DNA of 64,000 bases from a virus (Duplodnaviria; Heunggongvirae; Uroviricota; Caudoviricetes). The position numbers and the translations under genes are program-made. The notes under the pieces were generated by a model. It saw only the letters and a program-made list of their open reading frames with translations. It was not told the origin of the DNA and ran no database searches. Position 1 is the first letter of the stretch; each line of letters begins with the position of its first letter. Positions 6,939 through 22,782 of this stretch are shown in pieces. Location: IMG/VR virus record IMGVR_UViG_3300031344_000001, one strand, 5' to 3'.

Positions 6939-6990
6939 TGGTTATCCCGTCGAGTCTATCGAAGGCGGTAACAAAGCGCACATTTTTTGC

Positions 6991-7338: not shown

Positions 7339-7375
7339 CCTACCGAGGCTCCGATCCTGATCGCAAGGTCCAAGA

Positions 7376-8020
7376 TCACGCGCGGACCTCGACGCGCATG
7401 TGCACCATCGTCACGCCGTCGAGCAGGGCTGCGGGCACGTCGAGCCGCACGCCGAGGGCTTTTGCCGCGAGCACGAACACCAGTGGGATCGGGCCGCCGG
7501 TCAGCGAGCCGAAGGCTTGGGCGCCCGCGAGCGCGGTCGCGTGCTCGATCTTCCGCAGGTCGACCAGCGCGATCGGCTTGGGCTCCGCGCCCGGGCCGAG
7601 CTCGCAGTTCTCTGGGGGTGAGACCACCATGTGGTAGCGGCAGACCGTGGGGCGGACCGCGTAGACCTCGCAGCGTCGGTCCGGTGTCAGGAACATGCAC
7701 GGGAGCTGGCGCTGGAAGAAGGCCACGCGCTCGCGCTCGTCGAGGACGTTGACGCCGGCGAACGCGGTGAGCTGCTTGACCAGCTCGCGCTCGAGCGCGG
7801 GGCGCCGCTGCTCCCAATCGCAGCGACTCGTGAGGTACTCGACGACCGGGACCATCTCCGGGATGGTCGCGGTCGCGGGCAGCGTGCAGCAGTGGGCGCA
7901 GCCCTCCTTGCAGGTCACGCCCATCGTGGCCACGGCCTCTGCGACGAGCGGCGCGTGCTCGCGGTAGAGCTGGAGCACCACCTTGCTGGCACGCTTCGCG
8001 CGGCGACCCTCTTGGCTCAC
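7376..8020 (-). CDS. YkgJ/UPF0153-family putative Fe-S or zinc-chelating protein
   Basis: CKEGCAHCC (CxxCxxCC) motif plus downstream Cys residues; GTGA overlap with the upstream gene; the N-terminal 150 aa of the long ORF is R-rich and rejected. Confidence 0.55.
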   Translation of the reverse strand: MSQEGRRAKRASKVVLQLYREHAPLVAEAVATMGVTCKEGCAHCCTLPATATIPEMVPVVEYLTSRCDWEQRRPALERELVKQLTAFAGVNVLDERERVAFFQRQLPCMFLTPDRRCEVYAVRPTVCRYHMVVSPPENCELGPGAEPKPIALVDLRKIEHATALAGAQAFGSLTGGPIPLVFVLAAKALGVRLDVPAALLDGVTMVHMRVEVRA

Positions 8021-8526
8021 GGGCGGCCCTCGGCGTCCCAGCGCTTCATCGCGGCGCGTTCGGTGGGACGATGGGCGGCGAAGGTCTCGGCGGAGATCGC
8101 GCGCCGCGTCGCCTCCTCGATCGCTTGCTCTCGAGGCAGTCCGGCGCCGCTGGCGCGCCGCCACTCGCGCGAGCCGTCGTCGTAGAAGCGCAGCTGGTAG
8201 ACGTAGAAACTGCGGCAGTCGTCGCTCTGCGGGCAGCCCGGGAGCCCGCAGCGAGCGGTGCAATGGGGGATGCGCAGCACGCGCACGCCGGATCGGAACT
8301 GCACGACCAGGCACCCTTCCATCCAGTAGTCCGGTCTCGTCACGAGCCACGAGCGTCTCGGTGGCCGTGCCGACCGCGTCGGGGTGAGTGGTAGTCGCGG
8401 AGCCGGCGGCAGGCAGCCGACGCAGAAGCAGTGCGCCCACACTCGGGAGTCCGCGCGCGGGCCGATGACGGGCACACCGCAGCGCTCGCACGCGCCGCGC
8501 GGCGTGCTTTGACGTGGAGAGGACAT
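8017..8526 (-). CDS. Cys-rich hypothetical protein
   Basis: CERCG..CFCVGC..HCTARCGLPGC; contains copy 1 of the 50-bp repeat in its coding sequence. Confidence 0.45.
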   Translation of the reverse strand: MSSPRQSTPRGACERCGVPVIGPRADSRVWAHCFCVGCLPPAPRLPLTPTRSARPPRRSWLVTRPDYWMEGCLVVQFRSGVRVLRIPHCTARCGLPGCPQSDDCRSFYVYQLRFYDDGSREWRRASGAGLPREQAIEEATRRAISAETFAAHRPTERAAMKRWDAEGRP

Positions 8527-8762
8527 CAGGACCCTTGGCAATGCTCGTGCTCGTAGTACGGGTTCGACACGTACGGCCTGTGGGACTTGCTGGGAGCGCG
8601 AGCGCTCGCCACGAGCTGGGCTCCGAGGATCCCCAGGGTTCCGAAGCCGATAAGGATGCCGAACATCTCGACGAGCACGTCGGGCTTCTTCGCGGAGTGC
8701 CCTTGCGGGTCCTCCACGACCTGACCGGCCTGAGTGGCGCCGTAGTACCCGCGTGCGTTCAT
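8526..8762 (-). CDS. Small membrane protein (1 TM)
   Basis: Hydrophobic stretch LVEMFGILIGFGTLGILGAQLVA. Confidence 0.4.
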   Translation of the reverse strand: MNARGYYGATQAGQVVEDPQGHSAKKPDVLVEMFGILIGFGTLGILGAQLVASARAPSKSHRPYVSNPYYEHEHCQGS

Positions 8763-8860
8763 TTTTTCATACTAGCGTTGGGTCGAGAGGATGTGTCGAA
8801 GTTTCATCGACGGAAACTGCACGACCAAGTCCCCTTCCATTCAGTAGTTCGGTTTCGTGG

Positions 8861-9208
8861 TCACGTCGGCGCCTTCGCTCCGCGCGGCTTCTTCTGGCCG
8901 CGGGCCACCTCGTGGGCCGCGAGGCGGGCGATCGTTTCGCTCGTGTTGTCGCCGATCCGGCACACGTAACACGTTGGAGGCGGTGGTCGCGGCGACCCGT
9001 CCCCACCGTCGACGCCCCAACCCGCCGTCGCCGGTCCGCCGCAGCTCGTGCAGACGGAGTCGTGCGATCGGAGCAGCCACCCGTTGCCGTGGCCGACGAC
9101 GGGGACGACGTCGCGACTGGAGTCATCGAAGCCGAAGCACCACGGGCAGCGGTTGGACGGACAGCGCGTGAAGTAGCCGTGGGGGCACTTCTCCGCTGAG
9201 AGGCTCAC
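8861..9208 (-). CDS. Cys-rich hypothetical protein
   Basis: [27 protein letters not shown]; stop adjacent to the DnaJ start. Confidence 0.4.
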
Positions 9209-10323
9209 CTCCGGGACCTCTTCTTACGCGGTCGATCGTCGCCGAGCGCCACGAACTCGCGCAGGAGATCCTCCTGCTTGGGGGACAGCTTCCGCGGCAC
9301 TTCGACGATGAAGCGGACCACGTGGTCACCACGCTCTCCTCCGCCGACGCTCGGGATGCCCTGGCCGCGACGATGCAACTCGTCGCCCGGCTGCGTGCCG
9401 GGACGCAACTCCAGGATCGCGGTCCCCGTGCAGTCGTCGTCGAGCGTGTCGACCTCGACCTCGCCGCCGAGCGCTGCTTGGGCGAAGCTGATCGTCACCT
9501 CGCTGGTGACGTCGCTGCCGTCGCGCGTGAAGCGCTCGTCTTCTTGGACGTGGAGGACGACGTGGAGGTCGCCGGAGGCGCCGCCGGGCACGCTCTCGCC
9601 CCTGCCGGAGACGCGGAGCGTTTGGCCGTCGTCGACGCCGGCTGGGACCGTCAAGGACAGCGTGGACTTCTCGGTCCGCGTGCCTCGCCCGCGGCAGTCC
9701 GGGCACGGGTCCTTGATCGTCTTCCCCGCGCCCTGGCAGTGCGGACACGTCGTCTGCACCATGAAGAAGCCTTGTGCGTGAGTGACCTGACCCTTGCCCT
9801 GGCACGCACGGCAAGGCTCGGGTTGCGCTGCGCCGCGCACGCCGGTCGCGCGACACGCCGCGCACCCCGCGGCGCGCGTGACCTCGACGTCCTTGCGCAC
9901 GCCCCACACGGCCTCGCGGAAGGTGAGCCTCAGGTCGAGGCGCAGGTCGGCACCGCGCGTCGGTCGGCGCGAGTTGCGACCAAAGAAGTCGCCGAACAAG
10001 TCGCCGAACGCCGAGAAGATGTCGTCGACGTTGTTGAAGCCGCCGCTGAACCCCGCCCCTGGTCCGTCGCCGGGGGCAGCGCCGCCGCGGCGGATCCCGT
10101 CGAAGCCGTGGCGGTCGTACGCAGCACGCTTGTCGGTGTCGGACAGGACCTGGTAGGCGTTCGCGGCCTCCTTGAACTTCTCCTCGGCGGTCTTGTCTCC
10201 CGGGCACTTGTCGGGGTGGTACAGCTGCGCGAGGCGGCGGTAGGCTTTCTTGAGGTCGGCTGGCGTCGCCGCGCGCGGGACGCCGAGCACCTCGTAGAGG
10301 TCGCGAGGCGCAGACGTGCTCAC
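9205..10323 (-). CDS. dnaJ: Molecular chaperone DnaJ (type I: J domain, G/F region, 4x CxxCxGxG zinc finger, C-terminal domain)
   Basis: J domain with HPD ([13 protein letters not shown]); [32 protein letters not shown] repeats; GTG start with GGAGG RBS. Confidence 0.9.
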
Positions 10324-10637
10324 GCCGTGCCTCCGGGAGCCTGCGGCTGGCGGAGGACCGCTCCCGCCTCGAGCTTGGGGATCGCCAACTCGCACGAGCG
10401 CAGCTCGATGAGGAGGTTCTGCGGCACGACCTGCGCCTTGCTCAGGACCTCGTCGACGAGGCGGCGGGGTTCCACGACGGCGGTCCGGAGCTTCGCCAGC
10501 TCAGTGTCTCGCTCGGCGCTTCGCGGTGGTGTCGCGGCGGTGATGAGCATGCAGGTTTTGGCCCACGCGACCTCGTCGATCAGGCGATCGATCAGCTCGC
10601 GCGACGGGCGGTTTGGGGGGTCGGAGCAGGCGGGCAT
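10320..10637 (-). CDS. Hypothetical protein, translationally coupled upstream of dnaJ
   Basis: GTGA overlap with dnaJ; protein-like composition. Confidence 0.45.
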
Positions 10638-10834
10638 TTGCTGGGGAGTCTACTCGGTGGAGGGTGGGAACCTGACACAGATCCGCGCCTCACCGCCATC
10701 GTTTCGATCCTGGGCCTTGCCATCACACCGAGTGCACGTTTGGAGGCGCCCTGCGCCCTGGCGCCTGGCGCCTCGGAGGTCAGCGGTCAGCGGGGTGCCG
10801 CGTGATCGCGTATAAGCGACCTTGAGCCGGCGCG
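10638..10834. promoter_or_regulatory. Divergent intergenic/promoter region
   Basis: 197-bp non-coding gap between divergent gene starts; contains tandem CTGGCGCC. Confidence 0.35.
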
Positions 10835-12172
10835 GTGCTGGCCGACGAGGAGCAGGAGATGCCGGAGCAGATCGAACAGCTCGACGCGACCCGAAGTGTC
10901 GCAGATCACCACGCTTGGTTCGTTGGAGAGCTGGACCGGCTCGCCAGCGCCGTCAAGCTGGACCCGACCCACGTACCGTCTGGGCTGCTCGAGATCATCG
11001 CGAACGCACGCGCGCACTCGGAGGCGCTCGTCGCGAACCCGCTGCACCGCGAGCCGATCGCGGTCGTCGGTGTTGACCCACGGACCGCGGGCATGATCGA
11101 GATGCACGCCGCGCTCGTCCAGTCGGCGCACGCCGAAGCGGCGCTCGCCGCGCCGAACAACGTCCCCCCGAAGCCCGACAGCTGGTTGCAGCGACTTCGT
11201 GACCGCATCTTCGGGCATGCCGAACCCAACGCTCAGCGCTACGGTGACTTCGACGTCCACTGGCTTGAAGCACTCGCCGAGCGCCTCACCGCGAAGAAGG
11301 CCGCCTTTTCGACGGCTCCTCCCGCCGACCTCGCGATCGGCGCGGGCAAGGTGCGGCTCGCGATCGTCGGTGACTGGGGAACCGGTCTGCCGGAGTCCGA
11401 CCTGATCGGCACGCACATGCTCGCGACCGATCCCGACTACACGATCCACCTCGGCGACGTCTACTACGCCGGGACGGTCCCCGAGGAGGAGCGCTACGTC
11501 GAGTTGTGGCCAGGCGCGCCCGGCAAGTCACTGTCGCTCAACTCCAACCACGAGATGTACAGCGGGGGTCACGGCTACTTCGAGGCGACTCTCGGGAGCG
11601 CGAAGTTCGCGCTCCAGCAGCACGCGAGTTACTTCGTGATGCGCCACGAGCACTTCCTGATCATCGGGCTCGACTCGGCGTACTACGCTGACGACTTCCT
11701 GTACCAGCAAGGCAACCTCGACGACGTCCAGCTGCGGTTCGTCCGCGAGCTCGCCGCGGCAAACCCAACCCGCAACATCGTCATCCTGACGCACCACCAC
11801 GGGCTCGACCTCGATAACGCGCCGACGCGGATGTGGAGCCAGGTGCTCGGCGCCGTCGGCCGGCCGTTCCTGTGGGTGTGGGGACACATCCACGCCGGCG
11901 TGGCGCACGAACCGCGGCCGTTCCCGTTCCCGGTGTTCGCACGCTGCGTCGGCCACGGAGGTGTGCCGCATTCGCCGTTCACTGCGGCCGAGGCGGCGAC
12001 GTATGCTTGGGCGGAAACGCGCCTCGCCGATGATCGCGACGAGGCGAAGCGCGCGCTCAACGGGTTCTACACGCTCGAGATCGACGGCGCCACGCTGACC
12101 GAGCGGTTCATCGACGAGCGCGGTGACGAGACGTACTCGTCGGTGGTGTTCCGCGGACCGCCGACGCGCTGA
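10835..12172 (+). CDS. Calcineurin-like metallophosphoesterase
   Basis: Motifs IVGDWGTG, HLGDVYYAG, NSNHE, LTHHHG, WGHIHAG. Confidence 0.8.
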   Translation: MLADEEQEMPEQIEQLDATRSVADHHAWFVGELDRLASAVKLDPTHVPSGLLEIIANARAHSEALVANPLHREPIAVVGVDPRTAGMIEMHAALVQSAHAEAALAAPNNVPPKPDSWLQRLRDRIFGHAEPNAQRYGDFDVHWLEALAERLTAKKAAFSTAPPADLAIGAGKVRLAIVGDWGTGLPESDLIGTHMLATDPDYTIHLGDVYYAGTVPEEERYVELWPGAPGKSLSLNSNHEMYSGGHGYFEATLGSAKFALQQHASYFVMRHEHFLIIGLDSAYYADDFLYQQGNLDDVQLRFVRELAAANPTRNIVILTHHHGLDLDNAPTRMWSQVLGAVGRPFLWVWGHIHAGVAHEPRPFPFPVFARCVGHGGVPHSPFTAAEAATYAWAETRLADDRDEAKRALNGFYTLEIDGATLTERFIDERGDETYSSVVFRGPPTR

Positions 12173-12180
12173 CGGGGGGC

Positions 12181-12528
12181 TCACCGCTTCGGTTCGTAGC
12201 AGCGCCCTCCGGCTCCGAGCGACGACCCGAGTTGCCCGCGGCGCCGCATCGATTCGAGCACCGAGCGCGTCCAGGTGCGCTGCCGCTCCTTGGTGGCCCA
12301 GCGGAAGTCCTCTGGCATGTGCGCCTGGCGCAGGTAGTCGGCGACGAGACCGACCGTCACGCATGGTTCTTTGCCCCCGACGGTCGCGTGTCGTCTGTAC
12401 GCGCCCTCGATGATCTCCGTCGCGCCGGCCTCGATTGCCGTGCGCACGGCGTCGGGGATCCGCTTTCGTGCAGCGTGCCTCGTGAGGGCTGCGGCAATCT
12501 CGGCGTCGAGTTGGGAAGTCTTGGTCAC
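12181..12528 (-). CDS. Hypothetical protein with N-terminal TKTSQLDAEIAAAL motif (copy 2)
   Basis: GTG start in GTGA overlap with the upstream gene. Confidence 0.5.
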   Translation of the reverse strand: MTKTSQLDAEIAAALTRHAARKRIPDAVRTAIEAGATEIIEGAYRRHATVGGKEPCVTVGLVADYLRQAHMPEDFRWATKERQRTWTRSVLESMRRRGQLGSSLGAGGRCYEPKR

Positions 12529-12974
12529 CGCTGCTTGCTCTTCGGTCGGACCCACAGGACGTCCACCTCCTCGACACCGTGGTCGGCGAGAACTGACAGC
12601 CGGTGGTTCCCGTCGATCACTCCACCGTGCTGGTCGATGACGATCGGCCAGGGTTCTTGGTGCTGGTAGACGATCAGCCCTTCGACTTGATCGTACCGCC
12701 TGAGGTTCTGGCGGACCTCCTTGGCGTCGCTGTCGGGATCCACCTCGTAGTCGAACCTCGACCCGGGGTCCAGGTCGTGGATCGGTACGCCGCGAACGAG
12801 GTCCCACGTGTACTTAGACGGGGATTTGAACTCGGGGAACTTGACGGCCTTCTTGATCAGGGCGCCGTAGGACTTTGGGTCGACGCGCTCTCTGTGGAGG
12901 GAGACCAGCCACTCCGGGGCGCTCAGGGCTTCGTCGATCTCGGCGTCGAGTTGCGAGGGCTTCTTGGGTGTCAT
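12525..12974 (-). CDS. ParB-like nuclease-domain protein with N-terminal motif (copy 3)
   Basis: N-term MTPKKPSQLDAEIDEAL; VIDGNHRLSVLADHG resembles the ParB/Srx DGxHR motif; ATGA overlap with the upstream gene. Confidence 0.45.
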   Translation of the reverse strand: MTPKKPSQLDAEIDEALSAPEWLVSLHRERVDPKSYGALIKKAVKFPEFKSPSKYTWDLVRGVPIHDLDPGSRFDYEVDPDSDAKEVRQNLRRYDQVEGLIVYQHQEPWPIVIDQHGGVIDGNHRLSVLADHGVEEVDVLWVRPKSKQR

Positions 12975-13306
12975 CGGTCTTCTGCTTCGGACGCGATCCA
13001 TTCCTGCATGTCCGCCTTCACAGCGCTCTCCGCGCAACTCTGCCAGGCATCACGCCACGCTCTGTAAGCGGCTCTCAGCTCGAGACCGCTCTTGAGGATC
13101 CCGTCAACGTCGGCTTGAGAGAGCCACTGATCGTACTGGTCCTCGTCGTTACCCCACGCTTCGCGCACGATCTTCTTGGCAGCTCCGCTGCCTTGCGGTT
13201 TGCCGAGGCGTTCCCAAGCGTCGTTGTGGTCGCTCGTGTTGAATACGTTGGCGCAGTCCTGGTAGCCGGTTCGGGCGAAGTCCCCGTAGTTTAGTCTGTC
13301 CCGCAT
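12971..13306 (-). CDS. Hypothetical protein (111 aa)
   Basis: ATG preceded by AGGAGA, encoded within the C-terminal tail of the upstream gene. Confidence 0.45.
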   Translation of the reverse strand: MRDRLNYGDFARTGYQDCANVFNTSDHNDAWERLGKPQGSGAAKKIVREAWGNDEDQYDQWLSQADVDGILKSGLELRAAYRAWRDAWQSCAESAVKADMQEWIASEAEDR

Positions 13307-13608
13307 TTGGATCTCCTAAGAGCCTCGGCGATCTCGGCGTCGAGGCGGGCCCGCGTCCTCTTCACCGGGGGCACCGGGGTCCGTGGCACGGTTTCCAGCG
13401 TCGCGTACTTCGGGTTCATGCGCATCTCGACGGTCTTCGCGACGCGCCCGCGGTCGACGATGCGCAGTCGTCGGTGGGCACCGGGGGGCTCGACCTCGTC
13501 GCCCTCGGCGTTGACCTCGACGCCGCGGATGAAGAGCACAGAGTCGCTGGTGACGCGTAGGATGAAGCGCGTGCCGTCGTCGAGCGTGACCTTCAGGTAG
13601 CGGATCAC
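13291..13608 (-). CDS. Hypothetical protein with C-terminal RARLDAEIAEAL motif (copy 4)
   Basis: GTGA overlap with the upstream gene; the motif is immediately followed by the RBS of the next gene. Confidence 0.45.
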   Translation of the reverse strand: MIRYLKVTLDDGTRFILRVTSDSVLFIRGVEVNAEGDEVEPPGAHRRLRIVDRGRVAKTVEMRMNPKYATLETVPRTPVPPVKRTRARLDAEIAEALRRSKCGTD

Positions 13609-14021
13609 GTGAGCCCCTGGGCCGCGAGGAGCTGCTGGACCTCGGCGCGCAGCGCGCCCACCTCGCGGTGCAGCTGTGACCGGGGCGTGTGAGGAAACAT
13701 CGGGGAGCCCAGGTTGGCGTCGAGGCCCGGGACCTCGACGTTGTCGACTTGGTCGTTCACGACCTTCGTGAGGCCGCCGAGCGCTCTCAGGCGATCGGCG
13801 GTCGGGGAGGGACCGACGGCCTCGACGGAGGCGCGGACGACCTCCAGCCGCCCTAGGCGGTACGCCTCGGAGGCGCGGACGCGGTCCGTCACGACCTCCG
13901 CCGCCGTGGACAGGGGGTCGCGGCGGTCGGTGTAGGACACCCTGCCTGCGCCGGACTCCTGCGCGGCGCGCGTCACGGCGATCTCGCGGTCGAGCTGGGC
14001 GGATTTCCGACGATCAGACAT
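13605..14021 (-). CDS. Hypothetical protein with N-terminal MSDRRKSAQLDREIA motif (copy 5)
   Basis: ATG at 14021 with AAGGAAGG RBS. Confidence 0.5.
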   Translation of the reverse strand: MSDRRKSAQLDREIAVTRAAQESGAGRVSYTDRRDPLSTAAEVVTDRVRASEAYRLGRLEVVRASVEAVGPSPTADRLRALGGLTKVVNDQVDNVEVPGLDANLGSPMFPHTPRSQLHREVGALRAEVQQLLAAQGLT

Positions 14022-14313
14022 CGGACCAGCCTTCCTTGCTCGCGAGGCCCTGCATGTAGCGACCGCCACGCCAGCGGTGCCACACCTCGACACGCGAGTG
14101 CTCCCCCTGACGCACGAGCTTCATTGCGGCGCGCTTCGCCGCAAGACGAGACCGAAATTCCGGTTCCAGCGGCTGCTCCTTGGTGTCGGTGAGGTAGAAG
14201 ACTCTTTCGTCGTCGCTGTCATCGTCAGACGTAGACGTGGACGCGGATCCCGCGAGCGCTGCGGCGATTTCGCGGCTGAGCTGTGTAGCGGACGTTTTCG
14301 AGCGCCTGTTCAT
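14014..14313 (-). CDS. Hypothetical protein with N-terminal RRSKTSATQLSREIAAAL motif (copy 6)
   Basis: GGGAGAAG RBS; Asp-rich segment SDDDSDDE. Confidence 0.5.
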   Translation of the reverse strand: MNRRSKTSATQLSREIAAALAGSASTSTSDDDSDDERVFYLTDTKEQPLEPEFRSRLAAKRAAMKLVRQGEHSRVEVWHRWRGGRYMQGLASKEGWSDV

Positions 14314-14315
14314 TG

Positions 14316-15023
14316 TCAGCTTCTCCCAGGGACAATCTTGATCCGCTTTGGATCGAAGATCACCCAGTCGTCGTCCAGATGGATGCTGTCGTAACCGAGG
14401 CTCTCCAACTCATCGAGGCTATGCCGGTCGTACTCGTCCCAACCCGCGGTCTTGTCAACGTGCAGAAGTGCCTTGATCAGATGCTTCGTGCTCACGGCAC
14501 CGCTTTCGCCGCGTAAGATCTTGTCCTTGTCCGTGCTAAACCAGAACACGCCCTGCGCTGAATAGCGCGGATCGAAGCGTCGGATCTGCACGTCGCTGCC
14601 GTGATACGCGGTGATGACGCGGGGATGTGATCTAACGAGGACTTTGGTCTCGCGCTTGAGCGTTGTTTCCGATGGCTGCCCCGTGAGTGCGGCGGCGACC
14701 TCGCGGTCAAGTTGGGAGGACGTCTTCTTCCTCAGCGAACTGTGCGATCTGGAAGATTCGGAGGCCCTACGGTACCACGCCGCGTCGACGACGTTGCCTT
14801 CGACGGCGATCGCGTGCAGCGGGCCGTGCTGACTGTTGGCCTCGGCGACGGCGTCGCGCTTCGTCGCGAAATCGTCGCCCGCCTCGTCAGCGTACGTCGT
14901 GATCTTGCCGGACGGGTAGAACACGTCGTAGTCCCACCGGCCGTTCAAGCGTCGGTGCACGCGCACCCGCAGCGAGTCGTGCCTGTCGCGGTAGACGTAG
15001 TCGGCGTGCTTGCGCGCGGTCAT
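14316..15023 (-). CDS. Hypothetical two-module protein with internal RKKTSSQLDREVAAAL motif (copy 7)
   Basis: Single 235-aa ORF; the motif sits at the junction of the N- and C-terminal modules; no ATG/GTG start at the junction. Confidence 0.5.
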   Translation of the reverse strand: MTARKHADYVYRDRHDSLRVRVHRRLNGRWDYDVFYPSGKITTYADEAGDDFATKRDAVAEANSQHGPLHAIAVEGNVVDAAWYRRASESSRSHSSLRKKTSSQLDREVAAALTGQPSETTLKRETKVLVRSHPRVITAYHGSDVQIRRFDPRYSAQGVFWFSTDKDKILRGESGAVSTKHLIKALLHVDKTAGWDEYDRHSLDELESLGYDSIHLDDDWVIFDPKRIKIVPGRS

Positions 15024-15355
15024 CTTCCGCCGGGAACGTCGAGTGCGACCTCACGCCCCATCGCACGGTAGTGAAGACGGCGTTCGTCGATGTTGTCTTG
15101 CACGTCCGGCGTGGGCGTCTCCTCGGCGTCGTCGAACTCGCCGCCGTTGTCCGAGATCGTGTAGCGCTCCTCGTCGTCCTCGTCCTCGTCCTCGTCGTCC
15201 TCGTCGTCGTCCTCGTCGTCGTCCTCGTCGTCGTCCTCGTCGTCGTCTTCGTCGTTGTCCGCATGCACCGAAACCGAGATCGTCACTGGCTGCTTCGCGG
15301 CGAGCGCGGCAGCGATCTCACGATCGAGTTGGGCGGCGGTCTTCTTACGCTTCAC
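15020..15355 (-). CDS. Motif-tagged protein with a 30-residue pure Asp/Glu tract (copy 8)
   Basis: N-term MKRKKTAAQLDREIAAAL followed by DEDDDEDDDEDDDEDDDEDDEDEDEDDEER; encoded by a (GTC/CTC)n trinucleotide repeat at 15163..15259. Confidence 0.5.
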   Translation of the reverse strand: MKRKKTAAQLDREIAAALAAKQPVTISVSVHADNDEDDDEDDDEDDDEDDDEDDEDEDEDDEERYTISDNGGEFDDAEETPTPDVQDNIDERRLHYRAMGREVALDVPGGR

Positions 15356-15393
15356 GGCGTCACGCTACCAGCACGGTAAGGCGGTGCTTACGT

Positions 15394-15660
15394 CTAGGGT
15401 TTCAGGATCAGGTCCACGAGTGTCCTGATATTGTCGTCGGTCGCTCCATTGAGGCGTGCCGCTACAATCGCCAGCCCCATCAAGTGTCCGGACAAACCGA
15501 AGAGGTCGTAGCAAGGGGCTGCGTCGCTGCGGGCCTCGCATTCATCGGTGCTGATCACGCACAGCCTGTGCAGCGTAGTCAGTTGGCTTTCGAGCAGTGC
15601 ACGGGTGTGATCGATGCTTTCGAGGCACTCTTCGATCTCGATCGCGGGTTCGGCGCTCAT
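15394..15660 (-). CDS. Hypothetical protein (88 aa)
   Basis: Protein-like, acidic; flanked by lower-GC intergenic DNA. Confidence 0.4.
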   Translation of the reverse strand: MSAEPAIEIEECLESIDHTRALLESQLTTLHRLCVISTDECEARSDAAPCYDLFGLSGHLMGLAIVAARLNGATDDNIRTLVDLILKP

Positions 15661-15765
15661 TGGCGTAGTGTCCTGGCAGGCGCTTCGATCCTCGATGAAT
15701 CAAGTGGCTTCCGATTCATGTTTTCACCTCGCTATGTATTCGAGCCTGAGAAGCGTGATCGGTGA

Positions 15766-16242
15766 TCAGCGCGGTCGCACCTCGGAGCGCTTCTTCCAGA
15801 TCTCGTGGCGACGCGGCGGTTCGCCAGTCCTCCTGGCCTCTTCGAGGTCGTACTTGAACGAATACTCGACGCGCACGCGCTTCGGTGTCGCGCGCACGAC
15901 GACTCCGGGCCGGTAGCCGTGGGCGCTCTTCCCCGAGTAGCTCGGCGATTTGAACGAGACCTTGTCGCCAGGCTGGTAGTCGCGCTCGGTGCTCTTCAGG
16001 TGCGGGATGAGGGCTGGCGAGGGGTTCGCGGCGGAGTAGCCGGCACCGAGCGAGAGGCCCTGGTTCTCGACGTAGCCCTTCCAGTGCACGAGCAGGCGCT
16101 CGGCGCTCGACACGGAGGCGCTGAGCGCGTGGGCGCCCCACTTGCCGCCGTCCATCACGATCTGATCGCCCTTGCGGTAGAGCTGGAGGCCGCCGGGCTT
16201 GGGGAGTGTTGCGATCAGGTTGTCGGCTTCGGTGTTGGTCAT
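15766..16242 (-). CDS. Hypothetical protein (158 aa)
   Basis: ORF track; balanced composition. Confidence 0.5.
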   Translation of the reverse strand: MTNTEADNLIATLPKPGGLQLYRKGDQIVMDGGKWGAHALSASVSSAERLLVHWKGYVENQGLSLGAGYSAANPSPALIPHLKSTERDYQPGDKVSFKSPSYSGKSAHGYRPGVVVRATPKRVRVEYSFKYDLEEARRTGEPPRRHEIWKKRSEVRPR

Positions 16243-16245
16243 GAC

Positions 16246-16488
16246 CTAGTTACCCCAGTCGAGGGCGTCGTAGTTCGTCGAGTAGGCCGCCGTCGCGCCG
16301 ACCGAGGTCGACGTACCGCGTCGGATCCCGACGGCGCCGTCGTCCTCGACCCAGGTGGCGTGACTTTCTGGATCGATCTGCGCGTGGTTCTGCGGCTCGG
16401 TTTCGTCGGCACCGTAGTAGAAGCGCGCCCTGGCGGCGCTGCCGTCACGGTAGTTGAGGAAGCCCGTCTTGGCTCGAAGCGCGCCCAT
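16246..16488 (-). CDS. Small hypothetical protein
   Basis: ORF track; protein-like. Confidence 0.35.
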   Translation of the reverse strand: MGALRAKTGFLNYRDGSAARARFYYGADETEPQNHAQIDPESHATWVEDDGAVGIRRGTSTSVGATAAYSTNYDALDWGN

Positions 16489-16498
16489 CGGGGGGATC

Positions 16499-17074
16499 TT
16501 ACCGCGGAGGCCGGGCCAGGTCTCTTTTTGGATCAGGCGGCTGGGCGACCTCCGCGAGGGAGAGCGCGACGCGCCGGAGCAGCCCCGCGGTCTCGACCCG
16601 CGCGCCGGACCACTTGCTCTCGCGGGGCCCGGCGATGAGCAGCCTTGTCGGGATGGGGTTGAGAGGTGCCCCGAGCAGAGGCAACGGCAGCGTCTTCGTC
16701 ATCATCATCAGGTCGCTCCAGATCCAGCGCGCGACCCGCGCCGGATCGCACGTCGGGTCGACGATCAGGCGGGGGAGGTGACGTCCGGCTGCGAGGTCGA
16801 TCGTCTTGGCGGTGCCGGGTGTCACCCGTGGGTCGTCGGCGTCGTGGACCACGATCAGCGCAGCGCTCGCCCTCTGTACGTTGGCCTCGGTGCGCGCGGC
16901 GTAGCTGGTCTTGTCGTGCAGCGTGAGGAACCGCGCGACGGCCTCCGGGATCTTGCCGCGCTCGTCGCGGCCGTCGCGCGGCATGTAGCCCGTGACGAGC
17001 CAGCCGTTGTCGAGGGCGGCCTCGTGCGCGCCGCGGTCGACACCCGTCTGTCCGCCATGCACGACTGTGATCAT
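16499..17074 (-). CDS. SLOG/putative molybdenum-carrier-like Rossmann protein (LOG/DprA-like)
   Basis: N-term MITVVHGGQTGVDRGAHEAALDNGW matches the GGQTGVD signature as I recall it. Confidence 0.5.
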   Translation of the reverse strand: MITVVHGGQTGVDRGAHEAALDNGWLVTGYMPRDGRDERGKIPEAVARFLTLHDKTSYAARTEANVQRASAALIVVHDADDPRVTPGTAKTIDLAAGRHLPRLIVDPTCDPARVARWIWSDLMMMTKTLPLPLLGAPLNPIPTRLLIAGPRESKWSGARVETAGLLRRVALSLAEVAQPPDPKRDLARPPR

Positions 17075-17550
17075 GGGGTCTTCGCCTCCGCCACTGCCTC
17101 GACGCTCCTCGTCGTCGTCGTGTCCTTCGCCTGGTAGCCGATCGCGCAGAGGACCTCGGCCTCGGCAGCCCGGTGCGCTTGCTCCGCCACGGCAAGAGTG
17201 GTCTTCGCGTCCTCGATCGCGCGTGCTGTCGACTGGAGACGTTGGAGCGCCGTGGCGGGCAGCCTCCGCGCGCGCAGGTCCAGCTCGGCGAGTGCCGTCA
17301 GGATGTCACGGCACGCGAGGTGCCCGAGGCCGTCGCGATCTAGGGCGCCGACTTGGCGCGTGGCGTTCGCGAGGGCTTCGGCAACCTGGCCCCTCGTGAC
17401 GAGGACGAGCGCGTGGTCCGGGTCGATCAGTAGCCTCAGCGCCTCGGCGGGCGGGAATCGTGAGCGCTCGCCGACAGCGCGCTGGCGCGGACTCCTGGAG
17501 CACGTCGTCCGGTTGTGCCCGTCCTCGCGGCAGAGGGCGCACTTCATGGC
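17071..17550 (-). CDS. CCHC zinc-knuckle protein
   Basis: ATGA overlap; CALCREDGHNRTTC (C-x2-C-x4-H-x4-C). Confidence 0.45.
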   Translation of the reverse strand, partial: AMKCALCREDGHNRTTCSRSPRQRAVGERSRFPPAEALRLLIDPDHALVLVTRGQVAEALANATRQVGALDRDGLGHLACRDILTALAELDLRARRLPATALQRLQSTARAIEDAKTTLAVAEQAHRAAEAEVLCAIGYQAKDTTTTRSVEAVAEAKTP

Positions 17551-17810
17551 AGGGCCCTGCCCAGGTCGCGCTCGAGTCGCGCGCGCTTCGCCGCGCGGTC
17601 GTCCTCGTCGCCCGTGTCGCTGTTGACGTGGATTGTCGGTGCGACGTGCAGCTCGACGCGGCAGAGCGCCCCGCCGACGTTCGCCAGGCACAACCAGCGC
17701 CCGTCGAACGTCTTCAGCGCCTTGCCGACGTAGCGGATGCCAGTTGACTCGTCGACGACGCCGTCGACGTCGATCTCGGTCGCGTCGGCGTTCGTAGTGA
17801 CTTCCACCAT
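17544..17810 (-). CDS. Small acidic hypothetical protein
   Basis: ATG with strong AAGGAGAAG RBS. Confidence 0.45.
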   Translation of the reverse strand: MVEVTTNADATEIDVDGVVDESTGIRYVGKALKTFDGRWLCLANVGGALCRVELHVAPTIHVNSDTGDEDDRAAKRARLERDLGRALP

Positions 17811-17829
17811 CAGCGCTTCTCCTTGATGA

Positions 17830-18117
17830 TCACGAGGCACGCGTCCCTGATCGGGAGGGCAGTGTCCAGCCGTTCACGAGGTACGTGCGCGGCGTGTCAT
17901 CCCGCAGCGGTGGCAGCGTCTCAGCGGGCTCGCCGTCGTAGTGCCGCTGTATGGCGCCGCAGGCAGGGCACCACAGGATCGCGAGCCCGGTGAGCGGCTC
18001 GGGTGGGACGGTGTCGAGGGAGAACGTGCCTGCGATCCAGCTCGGGCGGTCGTGGGCACAGAGGTCCTTGATCCGGTTGTCACCCATCGCTTTTGCTCCA
18101 TGGGCGGAGGCGTTCAT
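17830..18117 (-). CDS. Small hypothetical protein (CxxC)
   Basis: ATGA overlap with the upstream gene; WCPACG. Confidence 0.4.
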   Translation of the reverse strand: MNASAHGAKAMGDNRIKDLCAHDRPSWIAGTFSLDTVPPEPLTGLAILWCPACGAIQRHYDGEPAETLPPLRDDTPRTYLVNGWTLPSRSGTRAS

Positions 18118-18515
18118 CGCAGCACAACTTTGATCACGTCCGTCTTCGCGTTCATTGACGATTCGATGCCGCTGCCGCTGTTCGCAGTCAGTTCTCCGGT
18201 CTTCACGAACAAGCGCTGTGCGCCGAGGTAACCGCCATGGCCTGCGTTGTCGCCCGACACAGGCCAATAGATGAAGTGTTCCCCACGCGCCAGGGCGCCA
18301 AACTTGAGCTTCTGGTCTGACATCGTTTGCACCGCGGGTTTTTGATCGGGCTCGTCGTCGAGGACTTCTCCGATGTCCCAGGGCGTAACTTGCTCCTCGG
18401 GTCCGTCGGCATAGCGCACGCGGTCGTCTTCGCCGTCGGGCGTGACCTTGGTGACGACGGCGATTCGCCCGTCGCGCATGCGGACGCGCGTCCCGGGACT
18501 CGGCATGAAGCTCAT
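18114..18515 (-). CDS. Hypothetical protein (133 aa)
   Basis: Start at MSFMPSPGTRV; the upstream part of the long ORF is R-rich and rejected. Confidence 0.45.
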   Translation of the reverse strand: MSFMPSPGTRVRMRDGRIAVVTKVTPDGEDDRVRYADGPEEQVTPWDIGEVLDDEPDQKPAVQTMSDQKLKFGALARGEHFIYWPVSGDNAGHGGYLGAQRLFVKTGELTANSGSGIESSMNAKTDVIKVVLR

Positions 18516-18784
18516 GGCTCGACGCTCCTGGTGGCGATCGCCCGCTGGTACGCCTCGGGCGCGTGTTCGACGCCCCAGTGCGCGCGCGTCACCCACTCGA
18601 TGAACTGAGATGCGAGGCTCTTGCCCGCGCCGGTCGCGGCGTCGATCGCGGCGTTGATCGGCACTGTCACGGCGCAGATCTCGAGGCCGGTCGCGGCGGT
18701 GAACTGCTCGCGCATCTGCGGCTCGTTCCACGCCCACAGGACGAAGTCCCGCCAACCGATCGCGTTCAGGTCGTCGAGGGTCAC
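18512..18784 (-). CDS. Hypothetical protein (90 aa)
   Basis: ATGA overlap with the downstream gene; protein-like. Confidence 0.45.
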   Translation of the reverse strand: MTLDDLNAIGWRDFVLWAWNEPQMREQFTAATGLEICAVTVPINAAIDAATGAGKSLASQFIEWVTRAHWGVEHAPEAYQRAIATRSVEP

Positions 18785-18993
18785 TTTTTGGTCTCACGGC
18801 CGGCCCCGCGCAGGAAGCTCTCCTGTCGGAGTCGGAGCTGCTGCTCCTCGTCGTGACCTTCGCGCAGGAGAGCACGCCGCTCGCGCTGCTTCTCCTCGTT
18901 CGCGAGGCGCGCGCGCTGCGCGCGCCTCGCGCCGTCGGCCCTGGTCGCGGACACGAGCTGCGTTGCGCGCAGGGCTTCTTGCAGGGATGACAA
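18781..18993 (-). CDS. Small charged coiled-coil-like protein (TTG start)
   Basis: AAGGAGAA RBS 7 nt upstream of TTG; avoids overlap with the upstream gene. Confidence 0.3.
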   Translation of the reverse strand: MSSLQEALRATQLVSATRADGARRAQRARLANEEKQRERRALLREGHDEEQQLRLRQESFLRGAGRETKK

Positions 18994-19012
18994 GCGTGGT
19001 TCTCCTTGAGGG

Positions 19013-19582
19013 TTACGTGAAGCGGCGGAGTGATCCGTCCGCTGCGCGCTCGAGACGGATCTTCTCGTCATTGTACAGCGTGCGTGCCTCGACGCTCTTG
19101 CCGTGGTCCCAGGTCACGATCGCCGTGCCCTCGTACGAACTCCCGATCGTGAAGTTCGTGTACTTGACCTTGTCGCCTGGTCGGAGCGTACGGGCCACCT
19201 TGGGCGCAGGTTCGACGCGGGTGGTGGGTATGGGCTCTTGGTGTGCGTGCTTTGGGATCGGTGGCGATCCTGGGGGCAGGGTCACCGTGATCGAGACCCA
19301 CTCGTCGACGACCTCGGTGCGGGCCTTCGCGCCAGGTACCGCCGCTTCGATCTCCTTGGCCTTCGTCCTAGCGAACTGGACCGTCCCGGGGTCGGCACGT
19401 CCTTCGACGATGTCGCCTTCGTCGCGAGACGTGAAGTGAAGTTGGTTGTCCGCATCGTCGTAAGCTTCTTCCTCGTCGAAGCCCGTCGATCGCATGAGGC
19501 GGCGGACCACCTCAAGCGCGCTCGGGCCGCTGGGACCGGCAGGTGGATTCTTCTTGCGCGTGCGTGCTTGCGTGGTGCTCAT
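19013..19582 (-). CDS. Hypothetical protein (189 aa)
   Basis: ATG with GGAG RBS; ATGA overlap with the upstream gene. Confidence 0.5.
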   Translation of the reverse strand: MSTTQARTRKKNPPAGPSGPSALEVVRRLMRSTGFDEEEAYDDADNQLHFTSRDEGDIVEGRADPGTVQFARTKAKEIEAAVPGAKARTEVVDEWVSITVTLPPGSPPIPKHAHQEPIPTTRVEPAPKVARTLRPGDKVKYTNFTIGSSYEGTAIVTWDHGKSVEARTLYNDEKIRLERAADGSLRRFT

Positions 19583-19827
19583 GGTGACTCCTCGGCGATC
19601 CTGCGTTCGACAAGCCCTCGGCGGAGGACCGCCCACCCCTCGCGGTCCGCCTTGGTGAGGGCGCGCCGCGCCGCGGCGGCCCATGTCTCGTGGCCGCGCG
19701 TCGTGTAGAGGACCACGCCGGTCTCGATGTTGCGATCGTCGACCTCGTAGAGGCGCGCGTCACGTTCGCCCGATCGAAAGGGGACGCGCGACGTCCGCTG
19801 GTGCACGCGCAGCTCGACGCGCTTCAC
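19579..19827 (-). CDS. Small hypothetical protein
   Basis: GTG start with GGAGG RBS. Confidence 0.45.
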   Translation of the reverse strand: MKRVELRVHQRTSRVPFRSGERDARLYEVDDRNIETGVVLYTTRGHETWAAAARRALTKADREGWAVLRRGLVERRIAEESP

Positions 19828-20165
19828 GCGGGCCTCCCCGTCGCGGCTCCAACGGCGTCGCGCAGCTCGCTCGCCGTGAGGTCCCTCGTGCCCTCGTTCA
19901 GGACGAACTCGGTCTTACCGCCGCGCGCGAAGTAGATGTTGGTCGTGCGTGGGCCGACGGTGACGCGCAGGTCGGTGCTCGGCAGCGCGTAGCGCGCTCG
20001 CCCCCCGAGTGTCCGGTGCTCACCGCCGGTTCCGCCGTAGATCGGCGACCGCCTCGTCGGGATCCGCACGACCTCCTCGCGTGTCGCGCCCGCCGGAGTG
20101 AAGCCCAGCTCCAGGAGCGTCGTGACGACCTCGTCGACGGTCACGGCTCGTCCCTGAGCTTGCAA
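19824..20165 (-). CDS. Hypothetical protein (113 aa)
   Basis: ORF track; protein-like. Confidence 0.45.
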   Translation of the reverse strand: MQAQGRAVTVDEVVTTLLELGFTPAGATREEVVRIPTRRSPIYGGTGGEHRTLGGRARYALPSTDLRVTVGPRTTNIYFARGGKTEFVLNEGTRDLTASELRDAVGAATGRPA

Positions 20166-20380
20166 GCGGCGCCACGGACCTCCGTGGCGACGTCGGCCGC
20201 GCGCTCGGCGTCGGCCGTCCCCGCGATGTAGGCCGTCAGCTTCTTGGGAGGAAACCAGTCGCGGAACATCATGGTGACCTGGTGGGGCTCGTAACCGGCA
20301 GCGTACATGCGTACGCGGAGCGTGTCCCTGTAGGCGCGCGCCGTGTCGGGGTGGTTGAAGCGCAAGAACGCGGCCTTCAT
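20141..20380 (-). CDS. Small hypothetical protein
   Basis: ATGA overlap with the upstream motif gene; its RBS GAGGAG lies inside the upstream C-terminus. Confidence 0.45.
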   Translation of the reverse strand: MKAAFLRFNHPDTARAYRDTLRVRMYAAGYEPHQVTMMFRDWFPPKKLTAYIAGTADAERAADVATEVRGAACKLRDEP

Positions 20381-20715
20381 CGGGGAGACTCCTCGCCGAG
20401 CGCCTCGGCGATCTCGGCGTCGAGTTGCGCGGGGGTCTTCGTCTCAGTGGCCTGGGGCGCCTTCCTCGCGCGCCACCAAGCGTTCAGCGCTGACTGGAGG
20501 GAGGGGAACGTCGATGGGAACGCCCGGTCGGTGTGCGGCGCGAGCCACTTCTCGATCCGGTAGCGCCTGCCCTTCGGGCCCAGCCAGGCGTGGCCGACGT
20601 GCTGGAACAGGTCGTTGTCGGGCGTCCACCAGAACCCGGGCAAGACGCTGTGGAGGACGATCGGGTGCGTGGCGCCGCGGGGACCGACGTGGAATGTCCG
20701 GCGCTGCTCGGCCAT
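20377..20715 (-). CDS. Hypothetical protein with C-terminal KTPAQLDAEIAEAL motif (copy 9)
   Basis: Trp-rich body; the motif is the last 20 aa. Confidence 0.5.
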   Translation of the reverse strand: MAEQRRTFHVGPRGATHPIVLHSVLPGFWWTPDNDLFQHVGHAWLGPKGRRYRIEKWLAPHTDRAFPSTFPSLQSALNAWWRARKAPQATETKTPAQLDAEIAEALGEESPR

Positions 20716-21251: not shown

Positions 21252-21455
21252 CTAGGGGATCTTCTGCATCCCGTGCGGGTACGGGCACGGGCACGGGGCG
21301 GGAGGCTCTTCCCCGACGAGTGGGAGCGGTGATCCCGACAAGCACTGCCCCGTGTGGTCGTGGCAGTGCCGGTGGCCGCAGTGGTCGCACGCGCCGTCGC
21401 AGAGGCTGCCGTCATACGCGCGTGTCGCCGGGCGCTGGTCGAGTGCGAGGGGCAT
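21252..21455 (-). CDS. Small Cys/His-rich protein
   Basis: CDGACDHCGHRHCHDH..C..CPCPYPH. Confidence 0.35.
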   Translation of the reverse strand: MPLALDQRPATRAYDGSLCDGACDHCGHRHCHDHTGQCLSGSPLPLVGEEPPAPCPCPYPHGMQKIP

Positions 21456-21463
21456 GGGTGATC

Positions 21464-21799
21464 CTACCGCGGAACGCCTTCACGGTGACGGGTGGACAGC
21501 CTCGTCCACAGCGCGGTCGTCTCCTCGACGTGGTGCGCGCGCAGGTCCTTGTACGCGCGGCGCAGGTCGTCGAGCGTCGCGTGCTCGAGAGCGTCGTCGT
21601 CGAGCTCGTGGAAGCGCGCGAGCCTCGCGGGGCGGTAGCCGTCGCAGCCGTGGCAGCTCATCTTGCCGGCGATGCACGGGCCGCCGCGGTGCGCGTGCCT
21701 CTGGCACCCGCACGCGCAGGTTGGGTGGGCAGGGCAGTAGTCGCCGTCCTGATCGCAGGTGCAGATCTGGCTCGGCGGAGCTTCTTGGTTAGCGCCCAA
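21464..21799 (-). CDS. Cys-rich hypothetical protein
   Basis: CTCDQDGDYCPAHPTCACGCQRH..C..CHGCDG. Confidence 0.4.
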   Translation of the reverse strand: MGANQEAPPSQICTCDQDGDYCPAHPTCACGCQRHAHRGGPCIAGKMSCHGCDGYRPARLARFHELDDDALEHATLDDLRRAYKDLRAHHVEETTALWTRLSTRHREGVPR

Positions 21800-22082
21800 G
21801 GCGCTCCCTCATGTCGAGGATGAGCCCTTGATGGGCTCTGTCGAGGTCGTTCAGGATCTGCGTTGTCTGAAGTTGCATGGAGGCGTAGCCCGTCAGGAAC
21901 GCGCACACGCTCTGCCGGGTCCCGACGTACTGGACGTCGTACTGGAGGGGTCCTGCGAAGCGTCCAGCGGTTAGGGTCCACTCGTCTGTGCCAGGCGCAC
22001 GATCAAAGACGACTTGGAAACCGCAAGCCTCTGCCAGTGCAGTGAGCACTTCGGTGGGTAGGTTGTCTTCGATCTTACTCAT
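21789..22082 (-). CDS. Hypothetical protein (97 aa)
   Basis: ORF track; protein-like. Confidence 0.45.
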   Translation of the reverse strand: MSKIEDNLPTEVLTALAEACGFQVVFDRAPGTDEWTLTAGRFAGPLQYDVQYVGTRQSVCAFLTGYASMQLQTTQILNDLDRAHQGLILDMRERLGR

Positions 22083-22135
22083 TGGGTCTCAACCGGATCT
22101 GGACAGGTCTCTCGTCGGAACGTCGGAACGGCCTC

Positions 22136-22729
22136 TCACATTGACGTAGCTGGGGAGTGCGCGTCGGCGGCTACCCGCGGCTGATCCACATGTGCCGCGT
22201 GAGGCTCCTGCCGTGGGCGATCGCGCAGCGCGAGACTCCTGCCGCGGGCGATCATGGCGTGGACCTCGGCCAATCGATCGTTGCTGAGGGAGAGGCGCTG
22301 CTCTTCTGCGATGCGCTCCAGGGCATCACACAACTCGAGGATCACCGCATCGCGCGGCTCGACGCGCACGCGGCGCACGCGGTCTTTCGGCTCCACGTAC
22401 TGAAGGATCGCCACCTCGTGGTTGGTCACGTAACAGCGGCGATCGTCGATCTTCTTGAGCACGCCCTCGTTCGTTAGTTCAGCGACACGTGCGCGCCACA
22501 GGTTCAGGTTCTCGCTGAGACCTGCGGCTCGTAGCACCTCGGTAGCTGAGCCGGGGCTGAACTTCCGAAAAGCCTGGATGACGATGTCGCGCTTGCGCTG
22601 GAGCCGCCCACTGTCTTCCTCGATGTGGAAGGCGTCGATGCTGGTGGGCGGATGGGCCCTGTCGAACGCACTGACGTAGGTGACGTTGTCGAGTGACGGT
22701 GTCGCGTTGGAGTCGTTGTTGTCGGGCAC
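22136..22729 (-). CDS. Winged-helix transcriptional regulator-like protein
   Basis: GTG start with GAGGAG; HTH-like segment SPGSATEVLRAAGLSENLNLWRARVAELTNEGVLKKID. Confidence 0.45.
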   Translation of the reverse strand: MPDNNDSNATPSLDNVTYVSAFDRAHPPTSIDAFHIEEDSGRLQRKRDIVIQAFRKFSPGSATEVLRAAGLSENLNLWRARVAELTNEGVLKKIDDRRCYVTNHEVAILQYVEPKDRVRRVRVEPRDAVILELCDALERIAEEQRLSLSNDRLAEVHAMIARGRSLALRDRPRQEPHAAHVDQPRVAADAHSPATSM

Positions 22730-22782
22730 GTCTCCTCGTAGCACGTGGGTCTGATGAGCTGATGAGTAAGACGTATGCACGC

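Follow-up and report, generated by a model that had tools for sequence, protein, structure and literature searches.

The gene at 15020..15355 on the minus strand of a 64,000-nucleotide stretch of phage DNA (the whole of it hereafter called the window) raises the question of what a long, unbroken run of aspartate and glutamate is doing in a small protein that also carries a short motif shared with other genes of the same locus. The open reading frame has a GTG start and encodes 111 residues (ORF list and translation), and the GTG is the sole possible start because a stop codon lies four codons upstream. Its codon-position composition (GC3 0.82, GC2 0.33) is the pattern of real genes in this window of 67% GC, and the opposite-strand ORFs 15010..15765 (+) and 15071..15379 (+) do not carry that signature. 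A scan for promoters and terminators gave no signals on the coding strand. A first reading of the letters alone (the sequence-only reading) had described a motif-tagged, poly-acidic protein, and the gene is indeed genuine, lies in an accessory locus and codes for a tagged and extremely acidic small phage protein. The product can be written as MKRKKTAAQLDREIAAALAAKQPVTISVSVHADN-(29 x D/E)-RYTISDNGGEFDDAEETPTPDVQDNIDERRLHYRAMGREVALDVPGGR, with the N-terminal tag KKTAAQLDREIAAAL. Its net charge is about -32 (about -3 if the tract is left out), and its pI is 4.05. The parts of the gene are as follows.

15020..15355, minus strand: gene for the tagged acidic protein, 111 aa, composed of tag, beta1, expanded acidic loop and an SDDGGEFDD-type alpha/beta core (ORF, GC3, homologs).
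15302..15346, minus strand: N-terminal tag K4-K-T-A-A-Q-L-D-R-E-I-A-A-A-L18, with a basic patch, a T-x-x-Q helix N-cap and a putative amphipathic helix (motif scan, tag HMM).
15263..15286, minus strand: predicted strand beta1 of the core domain, V24-H31 'VTISVSVH' (AlphaFold; V24, I26 and S27 invariant).
15167..15253, minus strand: D/E tract D35..E63 at the predicted tip of the beta1-beta2 hairpin, with four perfect GACGACGACGAG units (codons, TRF, AlphaFold).
15023..15166, minus strand: C-terminal part of the core, R64..R111, with predicted beta2 'RYTISD', 'NGGEFDD' loop, beta3, helix 82-98 'DERRLHYRAMG' and beta4 (invariant columns, pLDDT 80-93).

The uninterrupted D/E run, which is preceded directly by 'DN', comprises 29 residues; the tract had been put at 30, and while its description as one long uninterrupted run stands, the 30th residue is R64. 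Across the six reading frames of the whole window the runner-up D/E run has only 6 residues, so that the run of 29 lies far beyond chance. At the DNA level the codons GAC AAC GAC GAA are followed by four perfect GAC GAC GAC GAG units (48 nt) and then by GACGACGAG and GACGAG-type units. Tandem Repeats Finder placed the array at 15167..15260 with a period of 12 and 8.1 copies, and its score of 139 was the top array score in the window. The trinucleotide-type tandem repeat that had been claimed is thus present, and the codon listing and TRF agree on a unit of 12 nt, with subunits of 6 and 9 nt. The 48 nt of perfect repeats are without synonymous variation, in a gene whose D/E codons elsewhere include GAA and GAT, and this indicates a recent slipped-strand duplication.

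AlphaFold, run with the family alignment, predicted a tag helix (7-19), beta1 (24-31), beta2 (64-69), beta3 (78-81), a helix (82-98) and beta4 (103-106), in which the core forms a compact domain of about 60 residues with the order beta-hairpin, beta, alpha, beta. The tract segment 32-63 has no secondary structure in this model and a pLDDT of about 58-61. A homolog with a short loop, modelled from a 30-sequence alignment, gave an identical fold (pLDDT 84, core 85-93) in which beta1 and beta2 pair as a hairpin and the acidic loop is its 6-residue tip; in the P0006 model beta1 is E23-31. By these models the poly-D/E tract is predicted to be the tip of the beta1-beta2 hairpin. The tag helix, predicted at residues 7-19 and nearly invariant in family alignments, has a pLDDT below that of the core in both models, as expected of a tethered element. 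A Foldseek search of BFVD with the predicted structure returned no match at E<0.03. The only structural neighbour of the predicted structure was the anti-CRISPR protein AcrIF5 (PDB 7eqg chain J), with which it has its fold in common at 9% identity and with no profile-sequence signal.

Database searching with the 111-residue protein identified 12 homologs (52-61% identity), a further 17 came from the tag search, and a profile search of 1.84 billion representatives gave 35 remote representatives at E<=1e-3. Many of these 35 are tag-less proteins of 62-82 aa which match only profile positions ~23-84. The core domain was also found with other N-terminal extensions and within proteins of 466 aa and 1064 aa, and its R64..R111 part matches tag-less proteins. 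The signature of the core reads (V/I)T(I)xVH, acidic loop, Y/W-x-V-SDDGG(E/D)(F/W)DD and then ER..HY..G..V, and the invariant columns of the family alignment are D69, G71, E73, F74, D75, D76, V85, Q86, I89, D90, R92, R93, H95, Y96 and G100. Annotation databases added little. The 111-residue protein had no Pfam match at E<=0.1; DUF2457, MAM33 and the like came up only as noise from low-complexity sequence that did not reach the cutoff. The core domain gave no informative match in Pfam, PHROGs or NCBIfam and no sequence match in the PDB. The large multidomain carriers of the core gave nothing informative in PHROGs, Pfam and NCBIfam, with P0144 matching DUF5872 only, and the domain match of P0158 is probably a low-complexity artefact. 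No relative was found in INPHARED phages by tblastn of the 111-residue protein and two tag-less relatives, nor in IMG/VR by single sequence or alignment. The protein thus belongs to a family of small and strongly acidic phage proteins that has not been described before.

Within this family it is the length of the loop which sets the window protein apart. The beta1-beta2 loop measures 9-23 aa in 58 relatives (median 12) and 32 aa in the window protein. The longest D/E runs of the same relatives, with a median of 4 residues, do not exceed 11, against 29 in the window protein. What is conserved across the family is therefore a short acidic loop only and not the long tract; the sequence-only reading had itself named lack of conservation in homologs as grounds for its refutation, and with no D/E run above 11 in the 58 relatives this is largely what we found. 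The tract is a lineage-specific slippage expansion, composed of four perfect and further decayed copies, of a naturally acidic and length-tolerant hairpin tip. In this lineage, slipped-strand duplication of GAC GAC GAC GAG has taken an acidic loop of ~12 residues to ~32.

Such an expansion could be entirely neutral. The reading that the tract is junk in a tolerant surface loop, with the protein working by something other than charge mimicry (for example as a structural or regulatory adaptor using the conserved helix and the SDDGGEFDD surface), draws on the free variation of loop length and sequence around an invariant core, and on the recent origin which the perfect repeats imply. The loop is however acidic in essentially all 58 relatives, and the larger loops (18-23 residues, in several separate lineages) are without exception D/E-rich, which suggests selection for negative charge at this position and not just tolerance; we regard the neutral reading as unlikely. 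It is scarcely credible that the tract is a high-capacity element for binding or chelating divalent cations (Ca2+/Mg2+). Long D/E runs do bind cations non-specifically, and the conserved DDGGEFDD motif is rich in carboxylates, but no match to EF-hand or any other metal-binding family was obtained in Pfam or NCBIfam, the tract is not conserved, and nothing in the context links the gene to metal homeostasis.

Whether the repeat still changes in length was addressed by comparing assemblies. An identical gene was called on 9 metagenomic contigs. It differs by 0 nt in 6 complete assemblies from two projects, ENA and JGI (ERZ27245409, counted twice, -406, -391, -389 and JGI 3300031250), and a contig of JGI 3300028573 starting upstream of the tract adds a seventh spanning assembly with the identical tract. 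No polymorphism in repeat number was seen in these seven, which are consensus assemblies and not reads. The description of the repeat as a length-variable locus does not hold within the population, where 7/7 spanning assemblies have the same tract; tract or loop length differs between distant relatives. These data bear on the reading that the repeat is a contingency locus, in which frequent slippage alters tract length within populations and so tunes or switches activity. The four perfect 12-nt units, the three short contigs which start within the repeat and the independent expansions to 18-23 residues in several distant relatives would fit it. Against this, length and sequence are the same in every assembly that spans the tract, and contig breaks at low-complexity repeats are common assembler behaviour and a normal artefact. 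In addition, the 12-nt unit is divisible by 3, so that slippage cannot shift the frame and a classical on/off phase-variation switch is impossible. We consider a contingency locus very improbable. One of the short contigs starting inside the repeat (L011) has a GAG-to-TAG nonsense change at codon 102. An insertion that is in frame, fixed in the sampled population and unconserved in length is best described as tolerated or mildly adaptive and charge-boosting, and not as the defining functional element of the protein.

Within the longest of the 9 contigs, the 151.7 kb ENA contig ERZ27245409 k141_1981650, the window corresponds in reverse complement to about 80.3-144.3 kb. The window encodes a sigma-70 factor, a full-length DnaJ, a metallophosphatase, a cpYpsA-domain protein, a radical-SAM protein, an SPFH protein, ParB-like proteins, a VWA protein, a glycosyltransferase and many small ORFans; no tRNAs were found in it. 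From this gene content it appears to be the accessory part of a large phage. Syntenic relatives were found on contigs L005 (184 kb), L006 (35 kb), L007 (12 kb) and L058 (117.8 kb), and a more distant family member lies on a 443 kb phage-like contig. L058 has been binned into an NCBI "Gaiellaceae bacterium" MAG, a weak hint at a host among the Actinomycetota. A nucleotide search of 12-21 kb against phage and plasmid collections gave no match, and tblastn of the phage sigma factor gave generic RpoD-like matches only and no close cultured relative. The tagged gene set varies from phage to phage between conserved cpYpsA and DnaJ anchors, and its conserved pair is 15020..15355 and the adjacent "VFYLTD" gene. 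The other tagged genes of the window are these.

14316..15023, minus strand: 235 aa, downstream with an ATGA overlap; tag internal (residues ~97-117) between two modules, the C-terminal one with a weak ART-PolyVal match; unique to this phage.
14014..14313, minus strand: N-tagged 99-aa 'VFYLTDTKE' protein with a short acidic linker; partner of 15020..15355 in all relatives.
13605..14021, minus strand: N-tagged 138-aa protein.
13291..13608, minus strand: 105-aa protein with a C-terminal tag and a 'KYATLE...' domain.
12525..12974, minus strand: N-tagged 149-aa protein with a weak ParB-like C-terminal match; unique to this phage.
12181..12555, minus strand: N-tagged 124-aa protein.
20377..20715, minus strand: 112-aa protein with a C-terminal tag.
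6423..6938, minus strand: N-tagged 171-aa protein with the tag variant QLQREINEAL followed by SHATK.

The shared tag follows the motif (K/R)KK(T/S)xAQLD(R/A)EIAxAL, has 17-19 residues and occurs in 9 minus-strand genes of the window with GC3 support. It is built of a basic patch, an S/T-x-x-Q helix N-cap and a predicted amphipathic helix (L9, I13, L17; E12 invariant), usually followed by Gly/Pro/Ser or an acidic linker. When its copies are compared, amino acid identity is 56%, and nucleotide identity is 72% at codon positions 1+2 and 56% at position 3. The divergence of the third positions indicates that selection acts on the tag at the protein level, and on the same figures we rejected a repeat at the level of DNA. 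We also rejected the tag as a beta-clamp-binding motif (QL[SD]LF), its positions 4-5 being charged (R/A, E) and not hydrophobic.

In five related loci the tag is present in 50 of 172 called genes (about 29%, database gene calls). Placement, counted for four of the five, was N-terminal in 23, internal in 10 and C-terminal in 6 of 39. A tag profile, built from a tripled tag alignment, matched 300 database proteins at E<=10. The 127 that were retrieved, 12 of them family homologs found earlier, carry the tag at the N-terminus (109), at the C-terminus (15) or internally (3); they fall into dozens of small ORFan families without relation to one another, come from metagenomes throughout and lie on contigs of up to 443 kb. 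The tag clade consists of uncultured phage contigs of 117-443 kb. The sharing of the tag, first noticed from the sequence, proves real: besides the window genes, related contigs and hundreds of proteins in the database carry it. A given cargo domain may occur N-tagged, internally tagged or untagged, and the core of the 111-residue protein itself is untagged elsewhere. A cargo domain that is N-tagged in one phage is internally tagged in another because it has been fused with its upstream neighbour, as in L058, where 10270-10905 matches the window genes 14014-14313 and 13605-14021.

Further searches for the tag were largely negative. Its DNA pattern had 1 match only in IMG/VR, and in 185,579 GTDB reference genomes the tag pattern gave 41 single-copy matches which lack the basic/T-cap prefix and were judged unrelated, with no host identified. 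Pfam found no confident domains in 35 tagged proteins, and a full-text search of the searchable literature did not find the motif strings.

We hold the anatomical and evolutionary part of this description with high confidence, and on balance we think it probable that the reading as a whole, with a new acidic domain family, a slippage-expanded loop, a binder or inhibitor function and a targeting tag, is right. The mechanism is put forward more tentatively, by analogy, and may well be otherwise. The acidic domain would act stoichiometrically, binding or inhibiting a host protein that either binds nucleic acids or serves in defence. Its acidic hairpin, with the SDDGGEFDD surface, would be a polyanionic decoy resembling nucleic acid, to which the expansion would add charge and reach. 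The tag would act as a tethered amphipathic docking helix bringing many unrelated cargo proteins to one common partner, most likely as a targeting or packaging signal. Also speculative is the wider proposal that the tag serves as the address label in a cargo-targeting system not known before, which in a clade of uncultured high-GC large or jumbo phages would send dozens of unrelated small effectors to one place, and that the SDDGGEFDD domain is a new anti-defence family with an AcrIF5-like fold and an expandable acidic hairpin decoy. The destination might be inside the capsid, for co-injection, or else a compartment built by the phage or one hub in the host; no structural genes and no prohead protease were found in the 64 kb window that would link the tag with packaging.

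A different possibility is that the poly-D/E tract is itself the functional part and that the protein is, in the manner of Ocr or ArdA, a dedicated DNA mimic directed against type I restriction-modification or another DNA-binding defence. The net charge and pI reported above would suit such a role, as would an accessory locus with putative counter-defence domains, and some Acr proteins do use acidic loops as DNA-strand mimics. The Ocr- or ArdA-like candidate advanced by the sequence-only reading nevertheless finds no Pfam match at E<=0.1; the predicted fold is alpha/beta with a low-confidence loop, and the charge resides in that non-conserved, disordered loop. We judge a dedicated mimic quite improbable.

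Taken alone, the poly-acidic tract is an ordinary slippage expansion. Tracing it has led to two things not described before, namely a widespread small acidic phage domain that has no family assignment and a clade-wide tag on roughly 30% of accessory genes. The loop lengths found in the family span 9 to 32 residues and so form a natural series in which to study the effects of an acidic hairpin's charge and length on inhibitor function. Should the tag prove to be a signal for targeting or packaging, all effectors or cargo proteins of these uncultured large phages could be listed from sequence, and the tag could be put on foreign proteins to load them, a use already made of the T4 CTS.

Among known systems, Ocr and ArdA resemble the 111-residue protein in being small, highly acidic, early or accessory proteins from mobile elements (PMC4872106). 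Ocr (T7 gp0.3) has 34 acidic residues out of 116 (PMC4872106) and is a rigid folded dimer shaped like a bent 24-bp DNA (PMC4872106, PMC2806950). The all-helical dimer of Ocr, with surface carboxylates that mimic bent B-DNA, is not what is predicted here, and nor is the elongated three-domain fold of ArdA, for which a single small domain of 111 aa is too small; the protein matched no ArdA family in Pfam or NCBIfam. Eukaryotic poly-acidic tails such as that of HMGB1 have ~30 uninterrupted D/E residues and are disordered polyanions which bind basic DNA-binding surfaces. Those tails are conserved and C-terminal, whereas the tract described here is an internal, non-conserved loop expansion.

We know of no tag or poly-acidic loop in AcrIF5, the protein with the same predicted fold. 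In Pseudomonas, AcrIF5 binds the type I-F Csy complex in its DNA-bound state and displaces the helical bundle of Cas8f (PMC9637919), and nothing links this phage to a type I-F host. A parallel to the hairpin may be AcrIF19, in which a negatively charged beta-hairpin loop occludes the DNA-strand channel of a defence nuclease (PMC13381967); an acidic loop between two beta strands would be an architectural likeness to the acidic beta1-beta2 hairpin tip.

For the tag, two kinds of address peptide offer themselves. The cargo peptides of encapsulins and bacterial microcompartments are short and often amphipathic-helical. They stand at either terminus or between domains, a flexible linker connects them to cargo proteins of unrelated kinds, and they dock these to the shell. 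Their sequences are unrelated to the tag, which lies in a phage accessory locus. The second is the capsid targeting of T4, where a hyperplastic locus encodes small proteins of diverse kinds, IPI-III and Alt, of which several counter defences, and one short conserved terminal peptide takes them to a common destination (PMC3012670). The CTS has about 10 residues, is strictly N-terminal and is removed by the prohead protease, whereas the tag has 17-19 residues of different sequence and occurs C-terminally (6/39; 15/127) and internally (10/39) as well. The T4 prohead-protease site L/I-x-E has no conserved equivalent, as the residue after 'EIA' varies (A/E/Q/S/T) and there is no conserved I-A-E site, and we do not claim membership of the tag in the T4 CTS system. 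The likeness is one of organization. The T4 internal proteins are diverse defence proteins whose only common feature is the CTS (PMC3012670), and here, in a similar manner, variable cargo genes between conserved anchors carry one conserved tag, in 50 of 172 genes and on unrelated cargo domains.

The target gene carries the tag KK(T/S)xAQLDxEIAxAL. In the accessory region at 6423..20715 (-) and the related loci on four syntenic phage contigs (L005, L006, L007 and L058), about 29% of genes bear this tag, as do hundreds of metagenomic ORFans. Three tagged neighbours of the target gene in the window are as follows:

14316..15023 (-), two-module protein of 235 aa in which the tag is the linker between the modules
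12525..12974 (-), N-tagged protein of 149 aa with a weak ParB-like match
14014..14313 (-), conserved 'VFYLTDTKE...' neighbour family, with homologs in L005, L006, L007 and L058

Comparison of the five loci showed that the 235-aa gene is found in the window phage only, and likewise the 149-aa gene. The C-terminal module of the 235-aa protein gave a sub-threshold match to ART-PolyVal (E 0.007), the ADP-ribosyltransferase of polyvalent proteins. The C-terminus of the 149-aa protein is weakly similar to ParB-like PHROG families (E 6.7e-5), a match which weakly suggests a ParB/Srx-fold nuclease-like domain.

The sequence H-A-(T/S)-(K/R)-K often stands before internal copies of the tag, e.g., 'EDHATKKKSPAQLDREI', and 'SHATK' lies right behind the tag in the window gene 6423-6938. 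This HAT(K/R)K element near the tag could be a candidate processing site. In the 'VFYLTDTKE...' family the tag is immediately followed by an acidic linker of variable sequence (STSTSDDDSDDE, SSDDDG, SASDDDDDDAG, TTVDDDDDG); an acidic spacer behind the basic tag may be a common feature of the tagged proteins in general. Read in an alternative frame, the acidic repeat of the window gives 'RTTTRTTTRTTT' (14887..15264, -), and a distinct tagged gene of L007 (10571..10975) has a true in-frame 'TTRTTRTTRTTR' repeat immediately upstream of the tag. ACG/GAC-type trinucleotide repeats are thus recurrent in the phage clade.

In one sample, a short contig of the same phage (L011; ENA ERZ27245619 k141_1178272) carries a GAG-to-TAG change at codon 102 of the target gene, which removes the final 10 residues of the protein, beta4 included. 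This nonsense variant suggests that some genomes can do without the target gene or keep it under relaxed selection. Another member of the target family, P0085, is located on a contig of 443 kb (L057; ENA ERZ25039556 contig_15623) with phage-like content, i.e., endonuclease VII, a GH25 lysozyme, a TnpB/OrfB_IS605-family gene and many ORFans, and the tag and domain may thus reach megaphage-sized genomes.

Four further features of the window warrant description:

2107..3819 (+), sigma-70-family gene, 570 aa, ATG at 2107
9205..10395 (-), type-I DnaJ of full length, with a J domain, a zinc finger and a C-terminal domain
22783-23580 (-), radical-SAM-like gene
21252-21455 and 21464-21799 (-), two small Cys/His-rich ORFs, e.g., 'CDGACDHCGHRHCHDH...PCPCPYPHG'

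The sigma-70 factor has an N-terminal extension of about 330 aa. Closely packed tandem repeats of 5, 10 and 15 nt, with GGCAA, GGCTC or GGCGC-type units, occupy 1831..2112, and those of period 5 (about 20 copies, 2006..2106) lie directly upstream of the ATG; this array could be a candidate regulatory or structural DNA element. The DnaJ gene adjoins the tagged-gene cluster and is kept in relatives. Both Cys/His-rich ORFs lie just downstream of the radical-SAM-like gene (region 21252..23580), a layout that recalls a RiPP or maturase-substrate pair.
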